Numbered from the stretch's first letter, positions 38,301 to 50,601 are shown. The stretch: 64,000 nucleotides of DNA from Alphaproteobacteria bacterium (GCA_965243135.1 OZ251539.1:3264001-3328000); one strand, 5' to 3'. The notes: a model not told the origin generated them from the sequence alone. A program made the numbers and translations.

Positions 38301-38847
38301 TTCTCCTCCAGACTGGCTCCTTATGCGCGGCCAAGATAATGCAGGAACGCAGCCGCGTCACATGGATTCTGGCGGCTGCGCCGCCGTCCGGGTCGAACGG
38401 TCCACAGGGCCGTCCGCCGCGGCAGGGCGACGATCCGGCGACAAGCCGCCTTCGGTCCGGCCGCGCCTCGCGACGCGTACCGCTACGACTTCAAACCGGC
38501 TTGCCGGCTCGCCATCGAGCGGCGCGGCTGCGCCGACGGGCGGTTCGGCGCATCGGGGCGCAGGGCTCGGCGGCGGGATCCCGCCGCGAGGTCGAACTGC
38601 CCGGGGTCGGCGCGGGCGCGCACGGCACGGCGTTCCTCGGCGACGGCTGCCGCCTGAACGCGCAAGCGACCTGGCGCGACGTCAAGCCGACCGCCGGCCA
38701 AGAGAATTCGACAGAAGATGCGGAAGAGGGTTCGGAAGGACGGCGTGAAAATTCGCGCCGCCGCCGAACGGACGGCAACCGACAGGAAAGTTGCGCGGCG
38801 CGAAGGTTTCGCATACGTTCGTCGTTCCGAATTCGCAGGGGCATCTT

Positions 38848-39363
38848 ATGGAACAGTTCTCTTCCGAACTCATCGCCATTCTCGGCGTCGGCGCCATCAT
38901 GCTTGGCGGCGGCATTGCCGTTATCAGGCTGGTTCTTCTGCAAGGCCGCCGGCTCGACCGCCGAATCGACGCACTTGCCCTGCGCATGGACGAACGGGAC
39001 CGGCGGACGGACGACCGGTTCGGGCAGGTCAACGAGCAATACCGGCAGCTGACCGATCAGACCAACGAACGGTTCCGGCAGCTGACCGATCAGATGAACG
39101 AACGGTTCCGGCAACAGAACGAGGAGACCAACGAACGGTTCCGGCAGCTGACCGATCAGATGAACGAACGGTTCCGGCAACAGAACGAGGAGACCAACGA
39201 ACGGTTCCGGCAGCTGACCGATCAGATGAACGAGCAATTCCGGCAGATGAACGAACAGTTCCGGACGTTGAGCGAGCGCGTGGCGCGCGTCGAGGGCAAG
39301 TTCGACCTGCTCGAGACTTTCGTCGAGCACCGGAAGGAGCCGCCGGCCGAGGCGGCGGAATAG
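38848..39363 (+). CDS. Membrane-anchored coiled-coil protein with 11-residue repeats
   Basis: N-terminal hydrophobic helix, repeats of NERFRQLTDQM/NERFRQQNEET, C-terminal ERVARVEG. Confidence 0.8.
   Translation: MEQFSSELIAILGVGAIMLGGGIAVIRLVLLQGRRLDRRIDALALRMDERDRRTDDRFGQVNEQYRQLTDQTNERFRQLTDQMNERFRQQNEETNERFRQLTDQMNERFRQQNEETNERFRQLTDQMNEQFRQMNEQFRTLSERVARVEGKFDLLETFVEHRKEPPAEAAE
39061..39233 (+). repeat. Perfect 66-bp tandem repeat, about 2.6 copies, built from 33-bp subunits
   Basis: 39061-39126 is identical to 39127-39192; a partial third copy runs to 39233. Confidence 0.95.
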
Positions 39364-39608: not shown

Positions 39609-40433
39609 ATGATTGACGACGATTTGTTGAAAAGCGCCCGGGAAAAATCCCGGGATCTCGCCAAAGCTAAACGAGCTGTCGACGAATTCCTGAAAGTTAA
39701 GGACCACTCCGGCATAAATGCATTGCCGCTGTTCGAAAAAGCTGCAGGAGAATTGCATAAAGTATCCCACGAACGCCTTCTGGTCGAACGTTTGGAAGAA
39801 GAACGCAAGAAATTGGAGAAACGCACCGTCGAGGCTCTGCAACGAAGAAGGGAAGAGTTGCATAAATCCGCCGCGGAGGCCGGATGGACGGCGCGCAGAT
39901 TGCAAGATTTTGATTTTGTTGAATGTTTCCGTCTCGATTACCGCGGCGAACAAGTATCCGTGAAACTCGGAAGCGAAAGATGCGACAGCTTCAATGAAAC
40001 GGACGGAAAGAAGGTGTTCGTTCGCCTTCGACAAGAATTGTCGAAACTGCGAGACTTTCCCTTTTCCAGAGACAATTTTTTCCGGATGGTGAAAGAGGCG
40101 TTGCATATGGGAAGGGTTTTCGGATACGATAATGACGGCAAGGTGCCCATTCGCAGAGTTTACGCATTGTGCGCGTTGGCTCGGCAAACCGGGAACGAAA
40201 AATTCATGCGGAATCCGAATGGAAAGAATTTTCAGGATTACTCCATTTGCCAGTTCGTTTTCGACATGGCTCGTTTCGGACAATCCGGATGGCGCGACGG
40301 CCGGGGAGAAAGGCTATCCAGTCAAACGCCGAATATGGCTTCGGCCGTCGAGAAAAAAACGCTCACTCTGCCCTCGTTGGACGGCGCGGAAGCGGGCCCG
40401 CAACTTGCCGCCTTGTGGATCGAAAAGGCGTAG
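39609..40433 (+). CDS. Hypothetical protein, first gene of the ATPase-helicase operon
   Basis: 274 aa, charged helical N-terminal half, lower GC, abuts the next gene. Confidence 0.75.
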   Translation: MIDDDLLKSAREKSRDLAKAKRAVDEFLKVKDHSGINALPLFEKAAGELHKVSHERLLVERLEEERKKLEKRTVEALQRRREELHKSAAEAGWTARRLQDFDFVECFRLDYRGEQVSVKLGSERCDSFNETDGKKVFVRLRQELSKLRDFPFSRDNFFRMVKEALHMGRVFGYDNDGKVPIRRVYALCALARQTGNEKFMRNPNGKNFQDYSICQFVFDMARFGQSGWRDGRGERLSSQTPNMASAVEKKTLTLPSLDGAEAGPQLAALWIEKA

Positions 40434-41614
40434 ATCGCGTGCGGCCGGACGAGGCGTTGGCGACCCTTGCGGCGACCGGCGTCGCGCCGCCGGACGGAGA
40501 GACCGCCGCGCGCCTTTCCGTAGGCATCGGGACGACGCTGGAGCGCATCGTCGAGGAGACCTTCCCGTTCATCTCCGCCGGGGGCGGCGAGCTGAAATTC
40601 GTTCACGCGCCCTACGGCCGGGGCAAGACCCATTTTCTGCGGGCGCTGCAGAACGCCGCGCGCCGATATGGATTCGTGACCTCCTACGTGGATTGCAAGG
40701 ACTACGGCAGCCCCTTCCAGTCCCTTGTCGACACGTACCGGGCGATTTCGCGGAACATGCGTCCGCCGACGGACGACCCGGACGGCCGAACGGGCGCGGG
40801 ACCGGTGATCGAGGGCCGCTTCGACGAGGAACGCGTCGCGGCGAACAAGCTTTTGTCGCCGGAATATCGCAATCTGGTACGGTCGTATCATCAGGCGTCG
40901 GCGGACGACGAATGCGAAGATCTTCGCGGCCGCCTGGAGGCCCTTTTGAACTCCTATCCCGGAATCCGCGCGACGCCGGGAAAGTTGAGTTCGGCATATA
41001 GATGGCTGCCTCGACCGCTGGGGAAATTGGGATCCAGGAACGCAGGCTCGTGGCTGCGTTGCCTTCTGTCGCTGCCGCACGCTTTGGGGTATTCCGGGTT
41101 TCTGGTATTGTTCGACGAAACCGAAACCGTGCTCAATCGGGGCGCATCGCGGAGAATTCAGCAACGCCTGGCGCACATGCGGACCTTCGTGGATTACATG
41201 GCCATCGGCGGGATTCGCGGATGCGCGGTCTATTGCGCCGCGCTGGACGGTTTCGTAGACGACGCGCGCAGTTATCTCGAAGCGCTGTCCCAGCGGATCG
41301 AACGCTTGCGTTTGCCCGAGGCGGCCGGAGATGGCCAGCATGCGAACGGAACTCGAAACCCGCTCGCGACATGGGTGGACCTTGACGAATTGACGAATCC
41401 CGGTCCGAACGACGAGGAGTTCTTTTTCGGGATCGCGGACCGCATTGCCGACTTGGGAATGGAGGTGGGAATGTCCGAAGAAGGGAAGGCGAGAGCGTTG
41501 GAGAGAATGAAGCTGCAGGCGCCCGAATACACGGCAAACATCCAGCAAGGAAAGACGCGCGAATACGTCAAGTTCGCCGCGGCGTGCGTGGCCCAGGAAC
41601 TATACCGATCATGA
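40415..41614 (+). CDS. BrxD/DUF2791-like P-loop ATPase 1 (start GTG 40415 or 40439)
   Basis: ALATLAATGVAP, LKFVHAPYGRGKTH, LGYSGFLVLFDETE, ALSQRI. Confidence 0.85.
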   Translation: MDRKGVDRVRPDEALATLAATGVAPPDGETAARLSVGIGTTLERIVEETFPFISAGGGELKFVHAPYGRGKTHFLRALQNAARRYGFVTSYVDCKDYGSPFQSLVDTYRAISRNMRPPTDDPDGRTGAGPVIEGRFDEERVAANKLLSPEYRNLVRSYHQASADDECEDLRGRLEALLNSYPGIRATPGKLSSAYRWLPRPLGKLGSRNAGSWLRCLLSLPHALGYSGFLVLFDETETVLNRGASRRIQQRLAHMRTFVDYMAIGGIRGCAVYCAALDGFVDDARSYLEALSQRIERLRLPEAAGDGQHANGTRNPLATWVDLDELTNPGPNDEEFFFGIADRIADLGMEVGMSEEGKARALERMKLQAPEYTANIQQGKTREYVKFAAACVAQELYRS

Positions 41615-42894
41615 GCGTTGACGACGACGCCGCGGCGCGCCTGCGCGACTTGTGGGCGCGCCTCGCGGAAAGCGGCACGGTGCCTACCGATCTTGAGCTC
41701 GCCTCCCACAGCTTGCCGAATTACTCGGTCGCGGTCGAGCCTTGGATGGACCGGCTGGCGAAGCGCTATCTCCAGGACCTTTGCCGCAGAAACTCCCACT
41801 TCAAACTGGTTATCGCGCCTTACGGCGGCGGGAAGACCCATTTTTTGATTGAACTCGGAAATCGGGCGCGCAAGGAAGACTTCGCCGTTTCTTACGTTCC
41901 ATGCAGCGCGGATACGAATCTGGAAGACGGGTTGGAACTGTACAAGGAATCGGTGAAGAAACTGTGGCTTCCGGGCGAAACGGAATCAGGATTGCGACGT
42001 TTTCTCGGCGCGACGATCAAGAGAAAGCGCACTCAAATCTCCAGTCGCGAAGTCCCCGATGAAGCGTTGGCGTTCGACCGCTGGCTCCATACCGTGGAAC
42101 GGACGCAATACGAAGAGAACGCTTTCGGGCGCGTCATGGCGGCGGCGCTGCGGGGCGTGGACGAACCGTCGCAGCTTGGCGAAGCCGCTTTTCGGTGGTT
42201 GCAGGGCGATCCCGACACTCTCGGGCGAAGCGAACTGGAGGGGCTTGGTCTCGCGAGAATAAGCGCGAAGGACAAGAAGAAATTCGGAAGGAACATGCTT
42301 CTCTCGATGGCGAAATTTCTTCCGGAAGCAGGTCCTTACGGCTGGGTCTTGCTGATCGACGAGGTTGAAACCCTTTTCACCGCAAGAGGCAAGTCGTTGC
42401 TGCGCGTGCTCGCCGCGATGAGAATACTGGTGGACATTCAGGGAGTTCCTCTGCTGGGGACGTTCGCCGCCGTTCCCGACATCATGGAGCAAATCAGACT
42501 ATATGAAGCCCTTCGGGGCAGACTTTCGGTTATCGGCGCGGCCTTCGATCAAGGCAACGATCTTGCCGTCCAACTGCATCTGGACAAGATGGACAAACAA
42601 GAGAAGCTGCTCGCGGATATCGGACGTAGATTGATTCAAGTCGGAAGCCAGGCGAAAGGGGTTTCTTTCGACGCCGAATTGCAATCGTCCAACGCGGAGA
42701 ATCTGGCTCAAGTCGCGGCGGACCGGAATCTCGACGTGGATGCGCGACGGCTATACGTCAAGACATGGGTGAGCTTGCTCGAAGAACAGAGCGAGAAGGA
42801 ACAGCGGAGGTTCGAAAATCAGGAGCTATCGGAACGTTACCAAGGCGCTTTCGATTCGCTTCGCGCTTCCGAGAGCGACGATTTCGAACCATGA
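41611..42894 (+). CDS. BrxD/DUF2791-like P-loop ATPase 2
   Basis: SGTVP, FKLVIAPYGGGKTH, RWLQG, GWVLLIDEVE, YEALRGRL; ATGA overlap. Confidence 0.88.
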   Translation: MSVDDDAAARLRDLWARLAESGTVPTDLELASHSLPNYSVAVEPWMDRLAKRYLQDLCRRNSHFKLVIAPYGGGKTHFLIELGNRARKEDFAVSYVPCSADTNLEDGLELYKESVKKLWLPGETESGLRRFLGATIKRKRTQISSREVPDEALAFDRWLHTVERTQYEENAFGRVMAAALRGVDEPSQLGEAAFRWLQGDPDTLGRSELEGLGLARISAKDKKKFGRNMLLSMAKFLPEAGPYGWVLLIDEVETLFTARGKSLLRVLAAMRILVDIQGVPLLGTFAAVPDIMEQIRLYEALRGRLSVIGAAFDQGNDLAVQLHLDKMDKQEKLLADIGRRLIQVGSQAKGVSFDAELQSSNAENLAQVAADRNLDVDARRLYVKTWVSLLEEQSEKEQRRFENQELSERYQGAFDSLRASESDDFEP

Positions 42895-44258
42895 GGACCG
42901 GAGAAGAGATCTTCCATCCCGCTCTTGGTCGAGGAACCGTCGCCGAAATCGGCGCCCGAGGCGGGCGACCCGCTGCCCTCGTCGATTTCGGCTACGCGAA
43001 GAGCTGGGTGACCGCAGCTGAACTGGGAAAAGACATTGCGCCCGAGGCGTCCGAGCCGCCTTCGAGCGCGCCGCGCAGCTTGCCCGGCGACGTGGTGGAA
43101 GCGCGCCGCGGGGTGTTGGCGCTCAGACTCGGCCAGATTCTCGAAAGCGACGTGCGCGAATTGAGCGCCGGAACCGAGGACATCGAGGCCGAGATGGAAG
43201 CCCTCGTCTCGCGCGCGAGCCAGGGGCGGCCGGGATTTCTTCTTGTCGAAGGCGCTTGGGGCAGCGGCAAAACTCATTTGCTGACCATGCTCAACGCCAT
43301 CGCGGCGTCGAAGGAAATGGCGTCATGCGGCGTGATTCTCGATGGCGCAGGCCTGCGGCTTTCGGATCCGATGAAACTAATGGCGGCGCTGCTCGCTTCG
43401 CTGAAATACCCGGGCGAACCCGCCCCGCGAGGACTTCGCGACCGACTCGCTCTGTACCGTCAAGCCGGTCGCCGACCGGAAGCCCGCCTGACGTTGGTCG
43501 AACAAGCGGTACGCGCCTTGCCGGAGGTTCCGAAATCGGCGCTTGACGACGCCGAAGCGCTGGAAGTCCTCGAGGATTATTTTTGCCTCGCCTCCTCGGC
43601 GACCGCGGCGAGGGACAAGCTGACGTTTCTCGGCTATGGGCGCGTGCCTCTTCCTTCGATGGCCGCAAGAATGGTCGACGACCGTCCCATGCAATTTTAC
43701 CAACTCCTCCGGAGCTGGGTGGAGTTCGTCGTGACGACCGGAACGAAGGGGCTGGTGCTGACGTTCGACGAACTGGACGTAGAATATGCGAGCACGAAGG
43801 GATGGTCCCAGGCGCGGCGGAAAGAAAAGGATCGCCGCGCCGCGTTGTTGTCGGCTCTGGCGCGGTCGGTGGGCCGCGCCGTCAATTCCAGGGCGCCCCG
43901 GCTTCCGTTGATCGTCGCCTTCGGCAGCGCCCCGGGAAGCGGGGAAGGCGCAAGCGAGGACGATCCGGTTCGCGATCTGCAAAAGCATCTCGGCCCTGCC
44001 GGCCTGAAGGTCGTTTCGGCGCCGCGTCCCGACCTGCCGCAGGTGCGCTCGCTCGGGCGACGACTTCTCGAACTTTATGCGCGCGCCTACCCCGGCTGGA
44101 CCGCACGGGTCGCGCGGGACGAAATAGAGAAGCGGCTCGACGCATTGGCGCGAGAGCATCTCGACGGTCTCTCGCCCGTCACCAGAAACTTCGTGCGCCG
44201 GGCGCTGGAACTGCTGGACGTCGCCCCGGATCTTTGCGGCCGGCGGGCCAAAGCCTGA
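42891..44258 (+). CDS. BrxD/DUF2791-like P-loop ATPase 3 with a Tudor-like N-terminal domain
   Basis: GEEIFHPALGRGTV..VDF N-terminus, ALRLG, EGAWGSGKTH, GLVLTFDELD, RNFVR..LELLD; ATGA overlap. Confidence 0.85.
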   Translation: MRTGEEIFHPALGRGTVAEIGARGGRPAALVDFGYAKSWVTAAELGKDIAPEASEPPSSAPRSLPGDVVEARRGVLALRLGQILESDVRELSAGTEDIEAEMEALVSRASQGRPGFLLVEGAWGSGKTHLLTMLNAIAASKEMASCGVILDGAGLRLSDPMKLMAALLASLKYPGEPAPRGLRDRLALYRQAGRRPEARLTLVEQAVRALPEVPKSALDDAEALEVLEDYFCLASSATAARDKLTFLGYGRVPLPSMAARMVDDRPMQFYQLLRSWVEFVVTTGTKGLVLTFDELDVEYASTKGWSQARRKEKDRRAALLSALARSVGRAVNSRAPRLPLIVAFGSAPGSGEGASEDDPVRDLQKHLGPAGLKVVSAPRPDLPQVRSLGRRLLELYARAYPGWTARVARDEIEKRLDALAREHLDGLSPVTRNFVRRALELLDVAPDLCGRRAKA

Positions 44259-44276
44259 GGCGAGTCCGTCTTACCG

Positions 44277-46490
44277 ATGGTAGCCGATGCAGAAATCGTC
44301 CGCCGGCTGGGAGCGGCGGGAGTCGCCTTTTTCGGCGGGTTCCAGCGACTGCAGGAGATTCAGCGGGAGGCGGCGGCGGAGATACTTGACGGGCGCGACA
44401 CGCTTGTCGTGTCCGCGACGGCTTCCGGAAAAACCGAAGCGGTGGCCGCGCCGCTGGTTGCGCGTCTCCTCGCCCGCGGCGGCGCGCGCAGGAACGCCGT
44501 CCGATTGCTCGTCGTGACGCCGACGAGAGCGTTGGTCAACGATCTGGCGTTGCGCCTCGCCGGGCCGTTGGCGCAAATGGGTTTGACCTGCGGGCGCCAA
44601 ACGAGCGACCGCAGGGACAAAGGCAGGCGTCCCTTCGCGTTGATCACGACCCCGGAATCGTTCGATTCGATGCTGGTGCGCGACGGGGCGTTCGATGGCG
44701 GCAGGCTTGTCGATCACTTGTTGGCGAAAACGGACGCGCTCTTCGTAGACGAAGCGCATCTGTTCGACGGAACGCCGCGGGGCGACCAGCTATGCTGGTT
44801 GTTGGGCCGTCTGCGGCGCGTTCGGCAAGTCGGCAGAGGCGGCGAAGCGCCCGGGCTTCATCTCTGCGCTGCAAGCGCCACGGTGCGCGACGCCGACGCC
44901 TTGGCGAAACGATTGCTCGGTCCCGCTGCCGGCGCCGTAAGGATCGAGGGGGCGCGCAAGATCGAGGTTTTAGGCCCTGCCGACGAACCGCGCTGGATTC
45001 CGCTCGGAGCGAACGACACCGTCCCGGACTTGCGGAAGCGCATCGAGGCGGTCCCGTCCGCGGAACTGAACGAGGGGGTCTCCTCCCGGCTCTGGAAGGC
45101 CATGGCGGAAGCGGACCCGCCGATGGCCCGCAAGATTCTCGTCTTCGTTCCGACCCGTCGGCTATGCGACACCCTGTCCGCGCATCTGCGGGAAACGCTG
45201 ACGCGCCGCCGCGAGGTTCAGGTGTTGGCGCATCACGGAAGCCTGCAACGGGATTCCCGCGAAAAGGCCGAACGGTTGTTCATGTCGTCTCGCGATGCGG
45301 TGCTGGTGGCGACGACAACGCTGGAGGTCGGCATCGATATTGGGGACGTCGACGTCGTCGCGCTCGTTGGCGCGCCGCCGAAGACGAGCGCATTGCTTCA
45401 ACGTATCGGGCGTGGGGGCCGGCGGGACGGACGAACTCGTGTGCTCGCGCTTCCGCGCGACGATACGGAGCGCGCCGCGTTCGCGTCGATGCTGTTGTCC
45501 GCGAGGGATGGAACCGTGGAACCCGAAAGCGCCGGCCGACGCTGGTCGGTGGTCGTTCAGCAAGCCGCTAGTTTCGTCGCGCAGGCAGGTCGGCGCGGTC
45601 GGCGGCGCAGCGACTTGCTGGAACTGGCGGACGACGTCTGGCCGGGAGGGCGGAACGCCGTCCGAGAGATATGCGGCGAACTGCTCGAAACGGGCCATCT
45701 CGAAGAAAATCGCGAGCGAATTTTTCTCGGAGAGCCGTGGGCGGACGCTTTCGAGGCAGGCGAGCGCGGCATGCACGGGAATCTCGGCTCGCCGACCGGC
45801 GGCGTCCCGGTCGTCGATTCCAGTACCGGCGAAACGATCGCCCACGTATCGCAGGCGCCCGAGACGGAAAAGGGCATCGCTTTGGGCGGTCAAATGTGGA
45901 ACGCACGTTTCGCCAATGGCGAGGTTTGGTTGACGGCGCGCGCAGGGGGGCGACGACAAGGGGAATTTCGCTACGCTGCGAGGCGCGGCCCGCTCGGCGC
46001 GGAATATGCGGCCCATGTTCGCCGCGGGCTCGGTTTCGATGAACGGGACGCGCCGGTCGCGCTGATCGAAGAAAATCCGGTATGGTTGCATTTCGGCGGC
46101 GGCGCTTACGAAGCCGTGCTTGCCTCCCTCTTGCCGTCGGTTCGAAAACTCGCAGGAATGAGCGGCCTGGCGATGGCGGGGCATCCAGGCGCAGAGGATC
46201 CAAAGCGGGCAGCAGGCGAAAAAAACGCATTGAGCGATCTGGTGGAAGAGCTGTACGAGGATCTTGAATTCTTTTTGGAGACCGGCCCTTTTCAACGATT
46301 TCTTCCGAAACCATGCCGCAAGCGCGTGACCGTGGATCTGTTCGATGCGCCGCGCTTCCGGCGTTGGCTGGCAAGCCGACGGGTTTGGGAACTCGGCGCA
46401 AGCGACCGCCGGTTGGGGGCCGTTCTAGCCGCGTTCGGAGGCGGCAAAAGCGGGAAAAATAGCCGGAAAAATATGCATTCCATTTCTTAG
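44277..46490 (+). CDS. Lhr-like SF2 DEAH helicase
   Basis: ATASGKTEA, PTRALVND, TTPES, DEAH, SAT, HHGSL, TTLEVGIDIG, QRIGRGGRR. Confidence 0.92.
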   Translation: MVADAEIVRRLGAAGVAFFGGFQRLQEIQREAAAEILDGRDTLVVSATASGKTEAVAAPLVARLLARGGARRNAVRLLVVTPTRALVNDLALRLAGPLAQMGLTCGRQTSDRRDKGRRPFALITTPESFDSMLVRDGAFDGGRLVDHLLAKTDALFVDEAHLFDGTPRGDQLCWLLGRLRRVRQVGRGGEAPGLHLCAASATVRDADALAKRLLGPAAGAVRIEGARKIEVLGPADEPRWIPLGANDTVPDLRKRIEAVPSAELNEGVSSRLWKAMAEADPPMARKILVFVPTRRLCDTLSAHLRETLTRRREVQVLAHHGSLQRDSREKAERLFMSSRDAVLVATTTLEVGIDIGDVDVVALVGAPPKTSALLQRIGRGGRRDGRTRVLALPRDDTERAAFASMLLSARDGTVEPESAGRRWSVVVQQAASFVAQAGRRGRRRSDLLELADDVWPGGRNAVREICGELLETGHLEENRERIFLGEPWADAFEAGERGMHGNLGSPTGGVPVVDSSTGETIAHVSQAPETEKGIALGGQMWNARFANGEVWLTARAGGRRQGEFRYAARRGPLGAEYAAHVRRGLGFDERDAPVALIEENPVWLHFGGGAYEAVLASLLPSVRKLAGMSGLAMAGHPGAEDPKRAAGEKNALSDLVEELYEDLEFFLETGPFQRFLPKPCRKRVTVDLFDAPRFRRWLASRRVWELGASDRRLGAVLAAFGGGKSGKNSRKNMHSIS

Positions 46491-46769
46491 TTCGTTTGCG
46501 GATCTTGAGCGTCTCCCGACAACTTTTCGGGTCTTCTTTTGCATATTCCCCCCACGCGAAGCGTATCGCTCAAATCGTCCGTCAATCCGCGAAAGAGCGG
46601 ATAAAATCAAATTCTCCTCGAGAATCGCGCAGCCTATCGTTCGGGTCGAATTTCACCAGAAAACGCAATGGAGGAAAATACAGCAATTCCCGCTAAGGCT
46701 CTAAACCTTGGAAAATATGGGGTTTCAGAAAAATTTTTCGTAGACTTTTCTGGGTAGTTCGGTGCGATT

Positions 46770-48373
46770 GGGTGCAGATCTATTTTTGCCAAACTCCTTG
46801 TTTTTATTTACGGAATCGGGATTTCCGCCGTCAGGCCGCGATGACGTTGAACGCCTGATTGTCGTTCGCAGCCCCGGTCATTGTCCGCCATGCCGACTCG
46901 AAGCGACCTGACCAACGCTCTGAGGGTGAGGACGTTCTGACCGCCTTCGACGCTCCAGCGCGCCCGTTTCATACGCTGGTTGACCAGCACCTTGTTGGCG
47001 GCCTCCACGACGCCCGACCCATAGCCGCTGGCTTTGAGGCTCGCGTAGCGCATGCGACGCCTGTGCTTGCGGAAAAACTTGAGCTCGCGTCCGAGAACCT
47101 TGAGCGCCGTTTCCGTCGTCGCTTTGTCGCGGAGGTCGCCCGGATGACCTTGTCGACGCCGTCGGCGTCGTCGCGCAGGACGGCGCGGTACTTTTCGTAC
47201 CAGTTGCTTGCGACGGTCGGAGACCTCGTTGAGATGTTCGCACGCATGGAAAAAATCAACCGCCCGCTCGTCGGGCCGGAGCTTGTCGAGAAACGTCCAG
47301 TTGTCGGGCGCGGCGTCGGCAACGGCGACCACCTTCAGGTCGGGTCGTACCTTGGTGGGCGACCTCTTCGGCGAGTTGCGCCTTCAGCGTCGCCTTGCCG
47401 GCCTCCGGCCCGAAACTGAGCGTTTTCAAGCGATTGCCTTCCGCGTCCTGGAAACTGACCGTCCCGCAGGACGCCTCGCGCCAGCACGCTTCCTCGTCTC
47501 CGTCCGGGCGAAGCGAAACCCCGTCAAGCGAAACGGCGCAGGAAACCGCCTCGCACCGTTTCCGCCTCGCGGATGCTTTCCATGGCTTCCTGCTCCTTTT
47601 CCTTCCAGAGGCTGCCCGTCGTCTCCAACAGACGCGTGGCTCGACGACGGGTTCATGCCCCCCAACTCTCCGAAGAGTTTGGCCGTTTCCTGCGGCGTGC
47701 AGTGCTCCAGAAGCAGGAGAGAAGCGGCCGGGTTCGTGAGATAGCCGTCAATCAGGCCCAAGTCGTTGTCGACCGGCGAGAACGACTCCTTTTCCGAGCG
47801 CGTCCGAAAATACCGGACCGGACCGAACAGCGTGTGGACGGTCTTCTGCGTCCGCGCAGCCCGATAGAAGACCTTGTCGTCCTTGCGAATCGGGCCTCCC
47901 CTCTCGTCCCGGTCCTCGTTGCAAATCACCGTCCGGCACAGCACAGCGACCTGCTTACCCAAGCTCGAAATCGGCGAACGCCTCGGGACCCTCCCCCTCC
48001 GACCTTTCCTTGAGGAAGGCCGCGAATTCCCCGAACGCCTTGGCGGTCGCGGCCCCTTTCTCGACGATGGACGCGAAAGCGCCCCGGCGGCCACCGGGGA
48101 GAGCTCGGAAAGGGACAAACCGTTCGAAGATTGCGAAACTGACATGGGAATGCTCCTGATGTTGTGGTTTCGAGCCAACATTCTGCCGCGCGGCAGGAGC
48201 ATTCCTTTTTTTCGTCCTCCGACCCCCTGATCGTGTCAAAATCCGCGCCCGGAACGGCGTTTTGTCACGAAATCGCCGATTTCGTCCTTGAAGCGTCGCA
48301 GCTCGTACTCGAATAATTGTTGAAAATCAACAGGTTGTGGATTTTTCCTTTTGGCAATATCAGACCTGCACCC
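46770..48373 (-). mobile_element. IS (ISKra4/ISLre2-like), 1604 bp, with a decayed transposase
   Basis: Inverted repeats GGGTGCAGATCTATTTTTGCCAAA and GGGTGCAGGTCTGATATTGCCAAA (20/24 match); 8-bp direct repeat GTGCGATT at 46762-46769 and 48374-48381; transposase fragments DFFHACEHL and MRY..GSGVVEAANK..QRMKR. Confidence 0.88.
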
Positions 48374-48953
48374 GTGCGATTTGCCTTCGAATGAGGGATT
48401 TTCTTATGTCGCGGCGGCTTGTCCATTGGTAATTTCGCCTTCTCGGTGCACCTTCCGGACATGCGGCCGCCTTAGCGGGAATTGCTGAGGAAAATATAGA
48501 TCGTCGAGCTCGAACTTACTCGTTTCTATCGGGTCTTCTTGAATTTCCACGATATCCACCACCTCGACGAGGGATTTTTTCTCCGGTACGGATGCCGATG
48601 GCTTGGCCGTCAGCGATTGCGCGGCGCGACCGGCTCGAATTCTTGGTTATACGCTGCATGGACAACGCGGCCGTTCGACGGTTTGAGATCCATGCGACCT
48701 CCAAGAAAGTTCAGACGGACCTCCTCGCCCGTCATGAAAAAATTCGGATCGTCGTTCCCGCCGTCTCGCCTATCCGGGAAACCTGAAAGCGTCGATGCCT
48801 TCCACAGCCATCAATCTTCGACAGCCGCAATTTTTCGACAGCGATGCATCATTTCCTGGTTCGCTGCCGACAAGTTCCCCGCCCTCGACCGTCTGACGTT
48901 GGTTCTCGAAGCGCCGCCGCACGGACTGCCCTGAGAGCGGGTTCCCTGGCTTT

Positions 48954-50490
48954 TCAGACGGTTTCGAATTCGAACCCGACGATGTTGCGCTCCTCCCGGC
49001 CGAACTCAATGCCGATCAGGTGGACCGGCACGCCCGGACGCCGGTACTTGTCCGCGTAACCGCGCTCCCGAATCTGCGCCAGCGCGCGCCTTTCCGGCTT
49101 TCCGTCCGCGACCTTGAACTCGAACAGGTAGACGCCGCCATCGTACAGGACCGTAAGGTCCGAGCGGCCGCGCGCCGTGCTCTCTTCCGCGCGGACGTCC
49201 ATCCCCGCCGCCACGAAGTGCGAGTAGAACACGCTCGCATAGTGCGCTTCGTAGCCCGCCATGCCCGTGTTCGCGTACCACTCGTTCGGGATGCTCGCCA
49301 GGAACGCCCGGAACAGCCGCTCGAGGCCCGCGAAGTCGTTCGCGCGCATCAGGCGGCGCAACTCCCGGCTCTCCGCCGCGACCGCGACGTCCGGCGCCAT
49401 CGCCTCCAGAAGGAGCGCGTTCAAGCTGCGCTTCACCTCATGGTTCGGGTAGTCCAGTCGGTAAAGAAGCGCGTCCTCGTCCGGCTCTTCGCCGACGATG
49501 GTCAGGTAGCCGGTCTGGAACAGCAGCGCCTCGACGGGGATGCGGTCGACGTCGATGGCCGACAGCAGGTCGTCGTCCGCGATCATGCCCTCCAGGGCCG
49601 GCGCCGCGAACCGGCGCCGCGACAGAAGGTCGGCGAGGAAGGTCGGCGTGCCGGTCCGGAACCAGTGCGCCTCGAACTGGCGACGCCGGAAAAGCAGCAG
49701 GACATCGTACGGGTTGTATAGTTTCTCCGCGCCCCGCCAGTTGTAGCCGTTGTACCATCGGCGGACCTTGTCCCGGTCCAGGCCCTCGAGTTCCGGGACG
49801 AAGACCGCGTCCAGCTCCGCGTCCGTGTAGCCGCAGATGGACGAGAACTCCGGCTCCAGCGTGACGTCGATCAGGTTGTTCAGGCCCGAGAACAGGCCCG
49901 CATGCGAGAACTTGCTCACGCCGGTAAGGAAGGCGAACCGGATATGCGCGTCGCAGTCCTTGACGACGCTGTAGAAACCGCGCAGGAAGTCGCGGTTGGC
50001 CAGCGCCAGTTCCCGGTCGCCGAGCGCGTCCAGGATCGGCTTGTCGTATTCGTCGACCAGAACGACCACGCGCCGCCCGGCGCGCTCGTGCAGTTCGGAG
50101 ATGGTGAAGGCGGTCGGAGGCGTCCGGGTAGCCGCACTGGACGTCGGCGCGCTTTTCGGCGGCGTCGAGCTGCATCATCGCGTTCCTGTGCAGCCGGTCG
50201 GGGTCGCCGAGATTGCCGGAACCGAAACTGATCCGCACGACCGGATGGCGCGCCGACCAGTCCCACCCGTCGTGCACGGCGAGGCCCCGGAACAGTTCCT
50301 CGCTTCCCTCGAACAACTCCTTCAGCGTGTCCACGAACAGGCTCTTGCCGAAACGCCGCGGGCGCGACAGGAAATAGTGCTTGCCTTTCGCGGCCAACCG
50401 TTCAGCGTAGGCTGTCTTGTCGACATAGTAATGGCCTTCTTCGCGGATCTCGCGGAAGGTCTGGATGCCGATGGGCAGCTGGCGTTTCAT
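48954..50490 (-). pseudogene. AAA-ATPase-like + PD-(D/E)XK nuclease, frameshifted near 50100
   Basis: LPIGIQTF..YYVDKT..SRPRRFGKS in one frame; VDEYDKP..GRSDL..FEFK in another. Confidence 0.88.
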
Positions 50491-50601
50491 CGCGCCGCAA
50501 GTTAGTCCGCGGCGCGGCCGTTGTCGAACCGGGGCGCGCTCCGCCGCCAACGCTGCATCGGCGCGCTTGAAGGCGCGGTCGACTTCGCGCTATGCACGGC
50601 C

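Follow-up and report, generated by a model that had tools for sequence, protein, structure and literature searches.

We analysed a five-gene cassette in an Alphaproteobacteria bacterium (GCA_965243135.1), which lies on the plus strand at positions 39609-46490 of a 64,000-nucleotide stretch of DNA, hereafter called the window, that covers positions 3,264,001-3,328,000 of a single-contig 6.1-Mb genome (65% G+C, 98.8% complete). The cassette comprises five intact, tightly packed and co-oriented open reading frames (ORFs) in the order A-B1-B2-B3-H, encoding a protein of no known family, three ATPases of the BrxD type and a helicase resembling Lhr (Table 1). A preliminary description of the locus, made from the sequence alone, had put it forward as an undescribed anti-phage operon. 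The five co-oriented genes that it named can be read as intact ORFs at that place, as can its two ATGA overlaps (41611-41614 and 42891-42894), which form the B1/B2 and B2/B3 junctions, and the analyses below agree with its view of three mutually diverged, motif-retaining BrxD/DUF2791-like ATPases and an Lhr-like helicase.

The start of B1 was set at a GTG codon at 40439, 5 nt past the stop codon of A, in agreement with the N-termini of its orthologs; an alternative GTG start lies at 40415. The G+C content at third codon positions (GC3) is 0.73 for the H gene and falls under our filter of 0.72 for A, B1, B2 and B3, in a host whose genes have values of 0.8-0.9. The hairpin that follows H is weak evidence for a terminator, as such sites are fewer in the region than in shuffled sequences.

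Table 1 Features of the cassette and its right-hand neighbourhood, in window coordinates.
Feature	Position	Strand	Description
Gene A	39609..40433	+	274 aa, no known family
B1	40439..41614	+	391 aa, BrxD-type AAA+ ATPase, Walker A GRGKTH, Walker B FDET
B2	41611..42894	+	427 aa, BrxD-type AAA+ ATPase
B3	42891..44258	+	455 aa, BrxD-type AAA+ ATPase, Walker A GSGKTH, Walker B FDELD
Putative N-terminal Tudor domain of B3, residues 1-50	42891..43040	+	profile match to UvrD/PcrA type
H	44277..46490	+	737-aa Lhr-like superfamily 2 (DEAH) helicase
Predicted beta-hairpin of H with TGE tip, residues 510-524	45804..45848	+	VPVVDSSTGETIAHV; predicted structure and motif
Terminator-like hairpin	46515..46531	+	25 nt past H stop codon, possible operon end
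Degenerate repeat resembling an insertion sequence	46770..48375	.	1.6 kb, without long ORF; own-genome search and repeat analysis
AAA-ATPase_like (PF09820) and PD-(D/E)XK (PDDEXK_9, PF08011) gene	48954..50550	-	frameshifted; Pfam

Proteins of the cassette and their relation to known systems

All three ATPases pass the gathering cut-off of 22.2 bits for PF10923 (BrxC_BrxD, formerly DUF2791), with 79.6 bits for B1, 88.3 bits for B2 and 53.9 bits for B3. B2 alone spans the full length of the BrxD model (positions 39-407 of 414) and has no sequence relative among solved structures; B3 also matches the Pfam family AAA_16. In PADLOC the best model for B1, B2 and B3 is BrxD, at 77, 70 and 37 bits respectively, and the SngB model gives 26.7, 37 and 27.4 bits. 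Scores on the NCBIfam BrxD equivalog NF033438 (79.9, 70.9 and 38.1 bits) lie below its curated cut-off of 350. The Walker A (GxGKTH) and Walker B (DE) motifs are conserved inside each of the three orthogroups, and in B1 the residues G60, R61, G62, K63 and H65, together with F225, D226, E227 and T228, are invariant across 24 orthologs. By tblastn, each ATPase of the window is 30-57% identical to its own ortholog, compared to ~24-33% to the other paralogs. We also see B1, B2 and B3 each form a monophyletic group in a tree of 85 ATPases (support of 99, 100 and 99 in the Shimodaira-Hasegawa-like approximate likelihood ratio test, SH-aLRT), which was obtained from a quick IQ-TREE search, with a careful search unfinished and with a warning from the tool of long branches. 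The B1, B2 and B3 trees have the same subclades in common. These data suggest that B1-B3 are separate, co-inherited orthogroups with catalytic motifs kept, an arrangement that fits a hetero-oligomer.

The helicase H contains the Pfam domains DEAD and Helicase_C, and is matched in PADLOC by BrxHI (PDLC02503) with 231 bits and by SngC with 184 bits. Its nearest solved relatives by sequence are the Lhr structures 5v9x (1.2e-20) and 7lhl and the YprA/MrfA structure 6znp. An AlphaFold2 model of H (predicted local distance difference test, pLDDT, 85) gave Lhr 5v9x as its best Foldseek match, covering most of the chain with an E-value of 2.3e-22 and a template modelling (TM) score of 0.62. The RecA1 and RecA2 domains of the Lhr core are present, and no Pfam match to DEAD_assoc (Domain 4) was seen at E ≤ 0.01. 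Lhr helicases are described in PMC8301817 as having roles in repair and unwinding RNA:DNA hybrids. For the cassette proteins the BrxD and BrxHI models score best and those of SngB and SngC come next, so that their kinship appears to lie with defence systems.

Protein A has no match in Pfam (E ≤ 0.01), PADLOC or NCBIfam. Its family is rare, with 22 clusters, none of them named, among 5.8 billion proteins; a profile search of 1.84 billion proteins gave 194 representatives at E ≤ 1e-3, with the suspect matches P0117, a repetitive junk ORF, and P0092 and P0139, which have a like many-stretch pattern. The AlphaFold2 model of A (pLDDT 78) opens with three long helices that form a helical hairpin or coiled coil, continues with a five-stranded sheet at residues 95-129, and has a C-terminal half of three successive helices and two short strands, a region that may be winged-helix-like. 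VIA-align gave a top Z of 7.6, to generic helical hairpins and small alpha+beta folds; the run barely covered the C-terminal part, for which the match to chain G of the human ORC-Cdc6-Cdt1-MCM (OCCM) complex 8s0e, at Z 6.0, is within the noise range of the tool. ESM Atlas neighbours of A, among those listed, are unnamed hypothetical clusters. An alignment of 61 sequences shows conserved residues that are mostly Arg, aromatic or Gly/Pro, and it contains no conserved acidic, catalytic-looking cluster. Nor did the Foldseek comparison proposed in the preliminary description retrieve a known fold from the PDB at E ≤ 0.001, and the part of sensor or effector given there to the 274-aa protein gains nothing from either result. 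We regard A, with low confidence, as an adaptor or DNA-binding subunit. A complex prediction for A with B1 (score 0.02, mark 0.32) counts neither way, and the finding of no fused A-ATPase proteins is weak evidence by the account of the tool.

The combination of a PF10923 ATPase of the ORC/Cdc6 type (ORC, origin recognition complex) with an Lhr-like superfamily 2 (SF2) helicase is shared with the dyads of bacteriophage exclusion (BREX) type 2 (Pgl) and type 6. According to PMC12839542, BrxD belongs to the ORC/Cdc6 AAA+ ATPases, lacks extra domains and is tightly linked to BrxHI, for which it is a proposed loader or activator. The cassette differs from these dyads in its three paralogous ATPases and its extra gene A, and in having no PglZ, PglX, PglW or BrxC. 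PglZ (PF08665) has no match in the whole genome, so the cassette is not BREX, and no PglX-type methyltransferase or BrxC/PglY was seen by Pfam among the neighbouring ORFs. With Shango (SngA with TerB, SngB and SngC), a system that protects against phages according to the preprint 10.1101/2022.11.11.516204, the cassette shares the layout of a small stand-alone operon, in which a non-enzymatic protein is encoded ahead of a PF10923 ATPase and an Lhr-like helicase; again the three ATPases set it apart. Among 401 genomes sampled from the class, 14 have PF10923 matches, and seven loci were taken for comparison. Five have a single ATPase that scores 520-584 bits on the SngB model and were classed as Shango-type, one lies beside PglZ and was classed as BREX-type, and the last is a 1,679-aa ORF. 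Protein A has no Pfam TerB match at E ≤ 0.01 and no PADLOC family such as SngA, and TerB is not listed in structural searches of A, which by the account of the tool is no exclusion. Due to the lack of a TerB match in A and the weak SngB scores of B1-B3 compared to those of true SngB, the cassette is not Shango either. These results agree with the preliminary description in its statement that pglZ, pglX, brxC and a recognisable TerB gene are missing. In the literature we found no description of a triple-ATPase arrangement, with subscription-only papers and supplementary tables (including Supplementary Data S1 of PMC12839542, on BrxD contexts) outside the scope of the search.

A putative Tudor domain on B3 and a predicted hairpin on H

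The orthologs of B3 open with a conserved domain of ~50 residues (G..v.HP.lG.G.v...VDFGY), after which comes a low-complexity linker whose length varies widely, up to ~130 aa in the Desulfomonile loci. A profile built from 12 ortholog N-termini was compared with the PDB and matched 7egs_B (9.5e-6), 6yi2_A (1.4e-5) and 9dqs_A (2.4e-5), as well as residues 721-754 of UvrD1 9dci (2e-4), 4c2t (5e-4) and PcrA 5dma (0.1). This indicates that the N-terminus of B3 is probably a Tudor domain of the UvrD/PcrA type. In PcrA/UvrD, a long disordered linker likewise carries such a domain, whose binding partners RpoB and UvrB present a beta-hairpin with TGE at its tip; this helicase interaction motif is given as [VIL]-D-x-x-T-G-E-[VIL]-[VILT] (PMC8318588).

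A related motif is found in H, where residues 512-524 read VVDSSTGETIAHV. Assignment by DSSP on the H model gives a strand at 510-514, a loop at 515-519 (SSTGE) and a strand at 520-524, placing the motif at the tip of a predicted hairpin. All 19 sequences compared keep T517 and G518. Of 20 H orthologs, 9 contain the strict motif and 15 a relaxed form, and the core [DN]xxTG[EQ] is present at that site in 19. When the whole genome was translated in six frames, the strict motif was seen 3 times: once in ribosomal protein S10 (identified by sequence), once in an ORF of 155 aa that may encode a TadA-type deaminase and once in an ORF of 499 aa; no RpoB- or UvrB-sized ORF of the genome matches it. 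The S10 (NusE) gene lies outside the window, at G000:C1:2188722-2189027 on the minus strand. The relaxed motif occurs 10 times, with H as one occurrence, and the only ORFs of at least 600 aa that carry it are H and one ORF of 996 aa, so that neither RpoB nor UvrB does.

Because B3 has a putative Tudor domain and H a TGE-tipped hairpin, we propose that B3 tethers H through a contact between the two. As in PcrA/UvrD, the putative Tudor domain is small and sits on a linker, here of variable length, and the hairpin of the presumed partner has TGE at its tip. Unlike in PcrA/UvrD, where the domain is C-terminal on a superfamily 1 helicase, the Tudor domain of B3 is N-terminal on an AAA+ ATPase, and where RpoB (SI1) and UvrB are the partners there, the motif hairpin here is on a helicase of the same operon and the contact is a proposed one. 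BrxD of BREX and the Shango ATPases also provide a contrast, in that the Tudor-like pattern, the hairpin pattern and an A-like gene are absent from all 5 Shango control loci and from the 1 PglZ-linked BrxD control locus. In the Verrucomicrobiota clade of the cassette, the Tudor domain and the hairpin are both diverged, and one locus (L036) lacks both the Tudor region and H. The Tudor domain, the hairpin and the sister cassette described below are additions to what the preliminary description contained.

Distribution, a sister cassette and genomic context

A scan of one genome per species identified 28 loci related by A. Searching these by tblastn with the window proteins, we see A-B1-B2-B3-H in the same order at 20 of them, across 8 phyla. 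Four further loci are truncated by contig ends, one inside H (L037) and three earlier (L032, L035 and L038), and four are partial within their contigs (L023, L027, L036 and L045); in one locus of the 28 (L039), two cassette genes are interrupted ORFs. Record titles assign the loci to Alpha- and Gammaproteobacteria, Latescibacterota, Acidobacteriota, Binatia, Gemmatimonadetes, Planctomycetaceae and Verrucomicrobiota, and to Desulfomonile- and Syntrophus-type Deltaproteobacteria; the sole cultured carrier is Thiocapsa imhoffii DSM 21303. All-against-all clustering of the flanking ORFs at the 28 loci gave no other conserved neighbour gene. The survey of five-gene synteny suggested in the preliminary description thus turned out in favour of a five-gene unit. 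A was not found in 60 related genomes searched, nor was the wider A-like family in 400 further genomes of the phylum. Near-identical cassettes occur across phyla, in a metagenome-assembled genome (MAG) of Gammaproteobacteria (L019) and one of Latescibacterota (L020), a sign of recent transfer between phyla or of a binning error. Branch lengths for this pair, and also for L025/L026, are 0.06-0.14 per site in all three ATPase trees. Overall, the data support a rare, patchy, horizontally spread and self-contained conserved unit.

The only PF10923 matches in the genome are B1, B2, B3 and a second locus outside the window (G000:C1:687297-697100; L017:2297-12100), where a sister cassette occupies 689.9-695.0 kb. 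The order of genes at this locus is a RecD2-like helicase, X2 (~290 aa), C1 (319 aa), C2 (420 aa), an SNF2 helicase (ZorD/DpdE-like) and a DruA protein that has a DruA domain together with transposase DNA-binding and DDE domains. C1 is BrxD-like with no Walker A or B motif by pattern, and C2 is a BrxD-like ATPase in which no Tudor sequence could be read at the N-terminus. In the ATPase tree C1 joins B1 (SH-aLRT 80) and C2 joins B3 (92 and 83), both on long branches. X2 matches the intermediate P0121 (blastp E 2.7e-5 over 297 residues), and a profile of X2 and its distant matches aligns with the A profile at 99.8% hhalign probability (E 6e-28), the rows besides X2 in this second profile being themselves matches of the A profile. 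Comparison of the A profile with X2 alone by hhalign gave nothing, so the relation is visible via intermediates only; we consider X2 a probable distant homologue of A. Both cassettes have an A-like protein directly upstream of tandem BrxD-like ATPases. The sister differs in having two ATPases and, in place of the Lhr-like helicase, one of SNF2 type downstream and a RecD2-like one upstream. Tandem PF10923 genes are found in two more genomes of the class sample (G093 and G334), again with an A-like gene directly upstream; the SNF2 helicase is not conserved in G334. These comparisons suggest that A and its A-like relatives are a new protein family that marks cassettes with multiple BrxD-like ATPases.

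The flanks of the 28 loci were sampled as 197 ORFs within 8 kb of the cassette, selected by a greedy non-overlap rule and a GC3 filter. By Pfam they are a mix of housekeeping genes, transposases, a group II intron maturase, AAA_15/AAA_21 ATPases and restriction-modification domains. At a PADLOC threshold of E ≤ 1e-10, matches were obtained to MTase_II (3e-226), PtuA (2e-211), HEC-01B (5e-200), HEC-01A (1e-128), REase_I (4e-174), RmrA (2e-163), PDC-S02 (1e-145), REase_III (3e-130), AriA (8e-32), PglW (1e-77, 3 ORFs), mad2 (3 ORFs), mad6 (2 ORFs) and MkoA (3 ORFs), and to a type III-E CRISPR gRAMP (Cas7-11-like; 5e-248) at L030:7884-11528 on the minus strand. This gRAMP gene is directly downstream of the cassette in a Methylobacillus MAG. 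At a Verrucomicrobiota locus (L044:2041-9650, minus strand), a 1379-aa protein with NERD, protein kinase and AAA_16 domains (PglW/mad2-like) and an N6 DNA methyltransferase are encoded close upstream, on the strand opposite to that of the cassette, and a similar layout is seen in a second Verrucomicrobiota locus (L045). Large proteins beside the Desulfomonile loci were considered as PglW candidates and rejected, as Pfam identifies them as PAS histidine kinases.

In the window itself, the left neighbours of the cassette are the core genes leuS, lptE and a DUF3576 gene, then a repeat protein of 190 aa. The ORF of this last protein (38791-39363, plus strand) has a host-like GC3 and is directly upstream of gene A. 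It contains seven 33-nt (11-residue) tandem repeats at 38992-39287, with a weak Apolipoprotein-like helical match, and is not conserved beside the cassette in other loci. To the right, the stretch 46491-48953 has 48 listed matches in its own genome at 68-96% identity, many of them fragments. The repeat in this stretch that resembles an insertion sequence (IS) sits in an element of ~200 bp with perfect 19-nt terminal inverted repeats (46681-46699 and 48469-48487). Uninterrupted copies of the ~200-bp element lie at other places in the genome, such as near 654.3 kb, 2,210.3 kb and 4,288.6 kb. In the frameshifted gene that follows, two overlapping ORFs split PF09820 between them and the second also bears PF08011; Pfam on the neighbouring ORFs further shows a thiamine pyrophosphate (TPP) enzyme. 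The preliminary description had placed the operon next to an IS, among accessory genes that had mostly decayed. An IS-like repeat is indeed there, although degenerate and lacking a long ORF, and decay is seen in two items only, the repeat and the frameshifted PDDEXK_9 gene. No tRNA was found in the window and no long direct repeats were found bracketing the cassette region. In four genomes of the same genus, the flanking core genes are only ~70-75% identical and the two flanks lack synteny, too great a divergence for an empty-site comparison that would mark the island borders.

A candidate helicase-loading defence system and its alternatives

We put it at slightly better than an even chance that the cassette is a rare, mobile, stand-alone defence system of the BrxD/BrxHI-Shango kind, in which a hetero-oligomer of B1, B2 and B3, with A, loads or activates a tethered H on invader nucleic acid. 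In the scheme that we infer, which extends from complex formation and the Tudor-hairpin contact to the substrate and the defence role, B1, B2 and B3 would assemble on nucleic acid into one hetero-oligomeric, ATP-driven complex of the ORC/Cdc6 type. B3 would hold H, with the Tudor domain on its flexible linker gripping the TGE-tipped hairpin, and the ATPase complex would load or activate H on its target. This target would be replication or transcription intermediates of the invader, which 3'-5' translocation by H would disrupt; the preference of Lhr for RNA:DNA hybrids makes such intermediates a possible target. Protein A would serve as adaptor, as sensor or in regulation. The system would most likely be directed at phages or at invading DNA of another kind. 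By analogy only, paralogous AAA+ subunits of the ORC/Cdc6 clade, a small accessory protein and a helicase recall the loading of MCM by ORC-Cdc6-Cdt1 in eukaryotes and archaea. Unlike MCM, H is an SF2 helicase of monomeric type that forms no ring hexamer, and the link of A to that machinery is the match within the noise range described above.

Of the stand-alone system with hetero-oligomeric ATPases that the preliminary description had envisaged, the first half is in agreement with a self-contained, horizontally spread unit that lacks a BREX core and TerB, and for the second half the three co-inherited orthogroups offer a fit. On the defence-gene neighbourhood that it proposed to survey, the flanks taken in aggregate contain strong PADLOC matches, which are no more than suggestive of a defence role.

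Several observations weigh against a defence system with a tethered helicase. The flank matches are aggregate counts over loci, given with no background, and among the flank genes are many with housekeeping roles (P450, dehydratases, transporters, PAS histidine kinases). Pfam, PADLOC and NCBIfam reveal no recognisable effector domain (nuclease, toxin or NADase) in the five proteins. A and B2 are unmatched by tblastn in the 72,556 plasmids of PLSDB, and no copy of the cassette was found in the IMG/VR viral contigs. The Tudor assignment is based on 32-33 aligned residues at a profile E-value of about 1e-5, and residues 1-75 of the single B3 sequence have no Pfam match at E ≤ 0.1. The window H, with VDSSTGETI, has T in place of V, I or L at position 8 and misses the strict pattern, as do 11 of the 20 H orthologs. 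Finally, the partner of the Tudor domain could be a host protein instead of H, since RpoB and UvrB are the partners of this Tudor type in PcrA/UvrD.

This last point leads to the alternative that fares best, although we judge it unlikely: an accessory module for genome maintenance, acting on R-loops, transcription conflicts or repair, in which the Tudor domain of B3 recruits the complex to RNA polymerase or UvrB and H clears RNA:DNA hybrids or processes damage. Tudor domains of this type are reported in PMC8318588 to direct R-loop suppression, the activities described for Lhr in PMC8301817 and the relation of H to Lhr and the repair helicase MrfA would fit, and so would the missing effector domain and the housekeeping flanks. 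Yet RpoB and UvrB of this genome do not carry even the relaxed motif that H has, and such extreme patchiness (none of 60 relatives with A, none of 400 genomes of the phylum with an A-like protein), combined with cross-phylum transfer, would be unusual for a repair pathway. The closest families of the cassette proteins are moreover from validated defence systems, and defence and mobile genes recur in the flanks.

It is considerably less probable that the cassette is an expanded BrxD-BrxHI dyad that depends on a BREX-, MADS- or restriction-type system elsewhere in the genome and so does not stand alone. The dyad of BREX type 2 is part of a larger system as described in PMC12839542, the NERD-kinase and methyltransferase pair of L044 has the corresponding place just upstream of a cassette, and the PglW, mad2 and mad6 models each match 2-3 flank ORFs. 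Against such dependence, the near-complete genome studied here has no PglZ, no flank gene is common across loci, and the immediate neighbours are leuS, DUF3576, a repeat protein, an IS remnant and a pseudogene. Least probable of all is a module for the replication or upkeep of a cryptic integrated mobile element, in which ORC/Cdc6-like initiators, with A as a winged-helix-like accessory protein, would load a helicase at the element's origin: BrxD-type proteins do belong to the ORC/Cdc6 AAA+ clade by PMC12839542, the C-terminus of A does weakly match the OCCM helicase-loading complex and the cassette does move horizontally, but no integrase, partition, conjugation or other element gene is conserved alongside, plasmids and IMG/VR give no match, the window has neither a tRNA nor long bracketing direct repeats, H is Lhr-like and not a replicative hexameric helicase, and the A match is within noise.

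Returning to the defence system that we favour, the cassette would represent a dyad of the BrxD-BrxHI type stripped of its methylation, PglZ and TerB partners, with the ATPase split into three intact paralogs. The Tudor domain and the TGE hairpin would provide a concrete, mutable contact between ATPase and helicase, making the loader idea directly testable. A broader proposal, which we hold to be possible but doubtful, is that the cassette and its SNF2-linked sister belong to an unrecognised defence superfamily, wherein an ORC/Cdc6-like hetero-oligomeric loader of three specialised AAA+ paralogs and an A-type adaptor would recognise nucleic acid of the invader and deploy an SF2 effector helicase, held by a Tudor-TGE contact like that of UvrD/PcrA with RNA polymerase and UvrB. 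If this were true, it would explain the role of the single BrxD or SngB in BREX type 2 and Shango. In short, the cassette is a candidate new defence family across 8 phyla.

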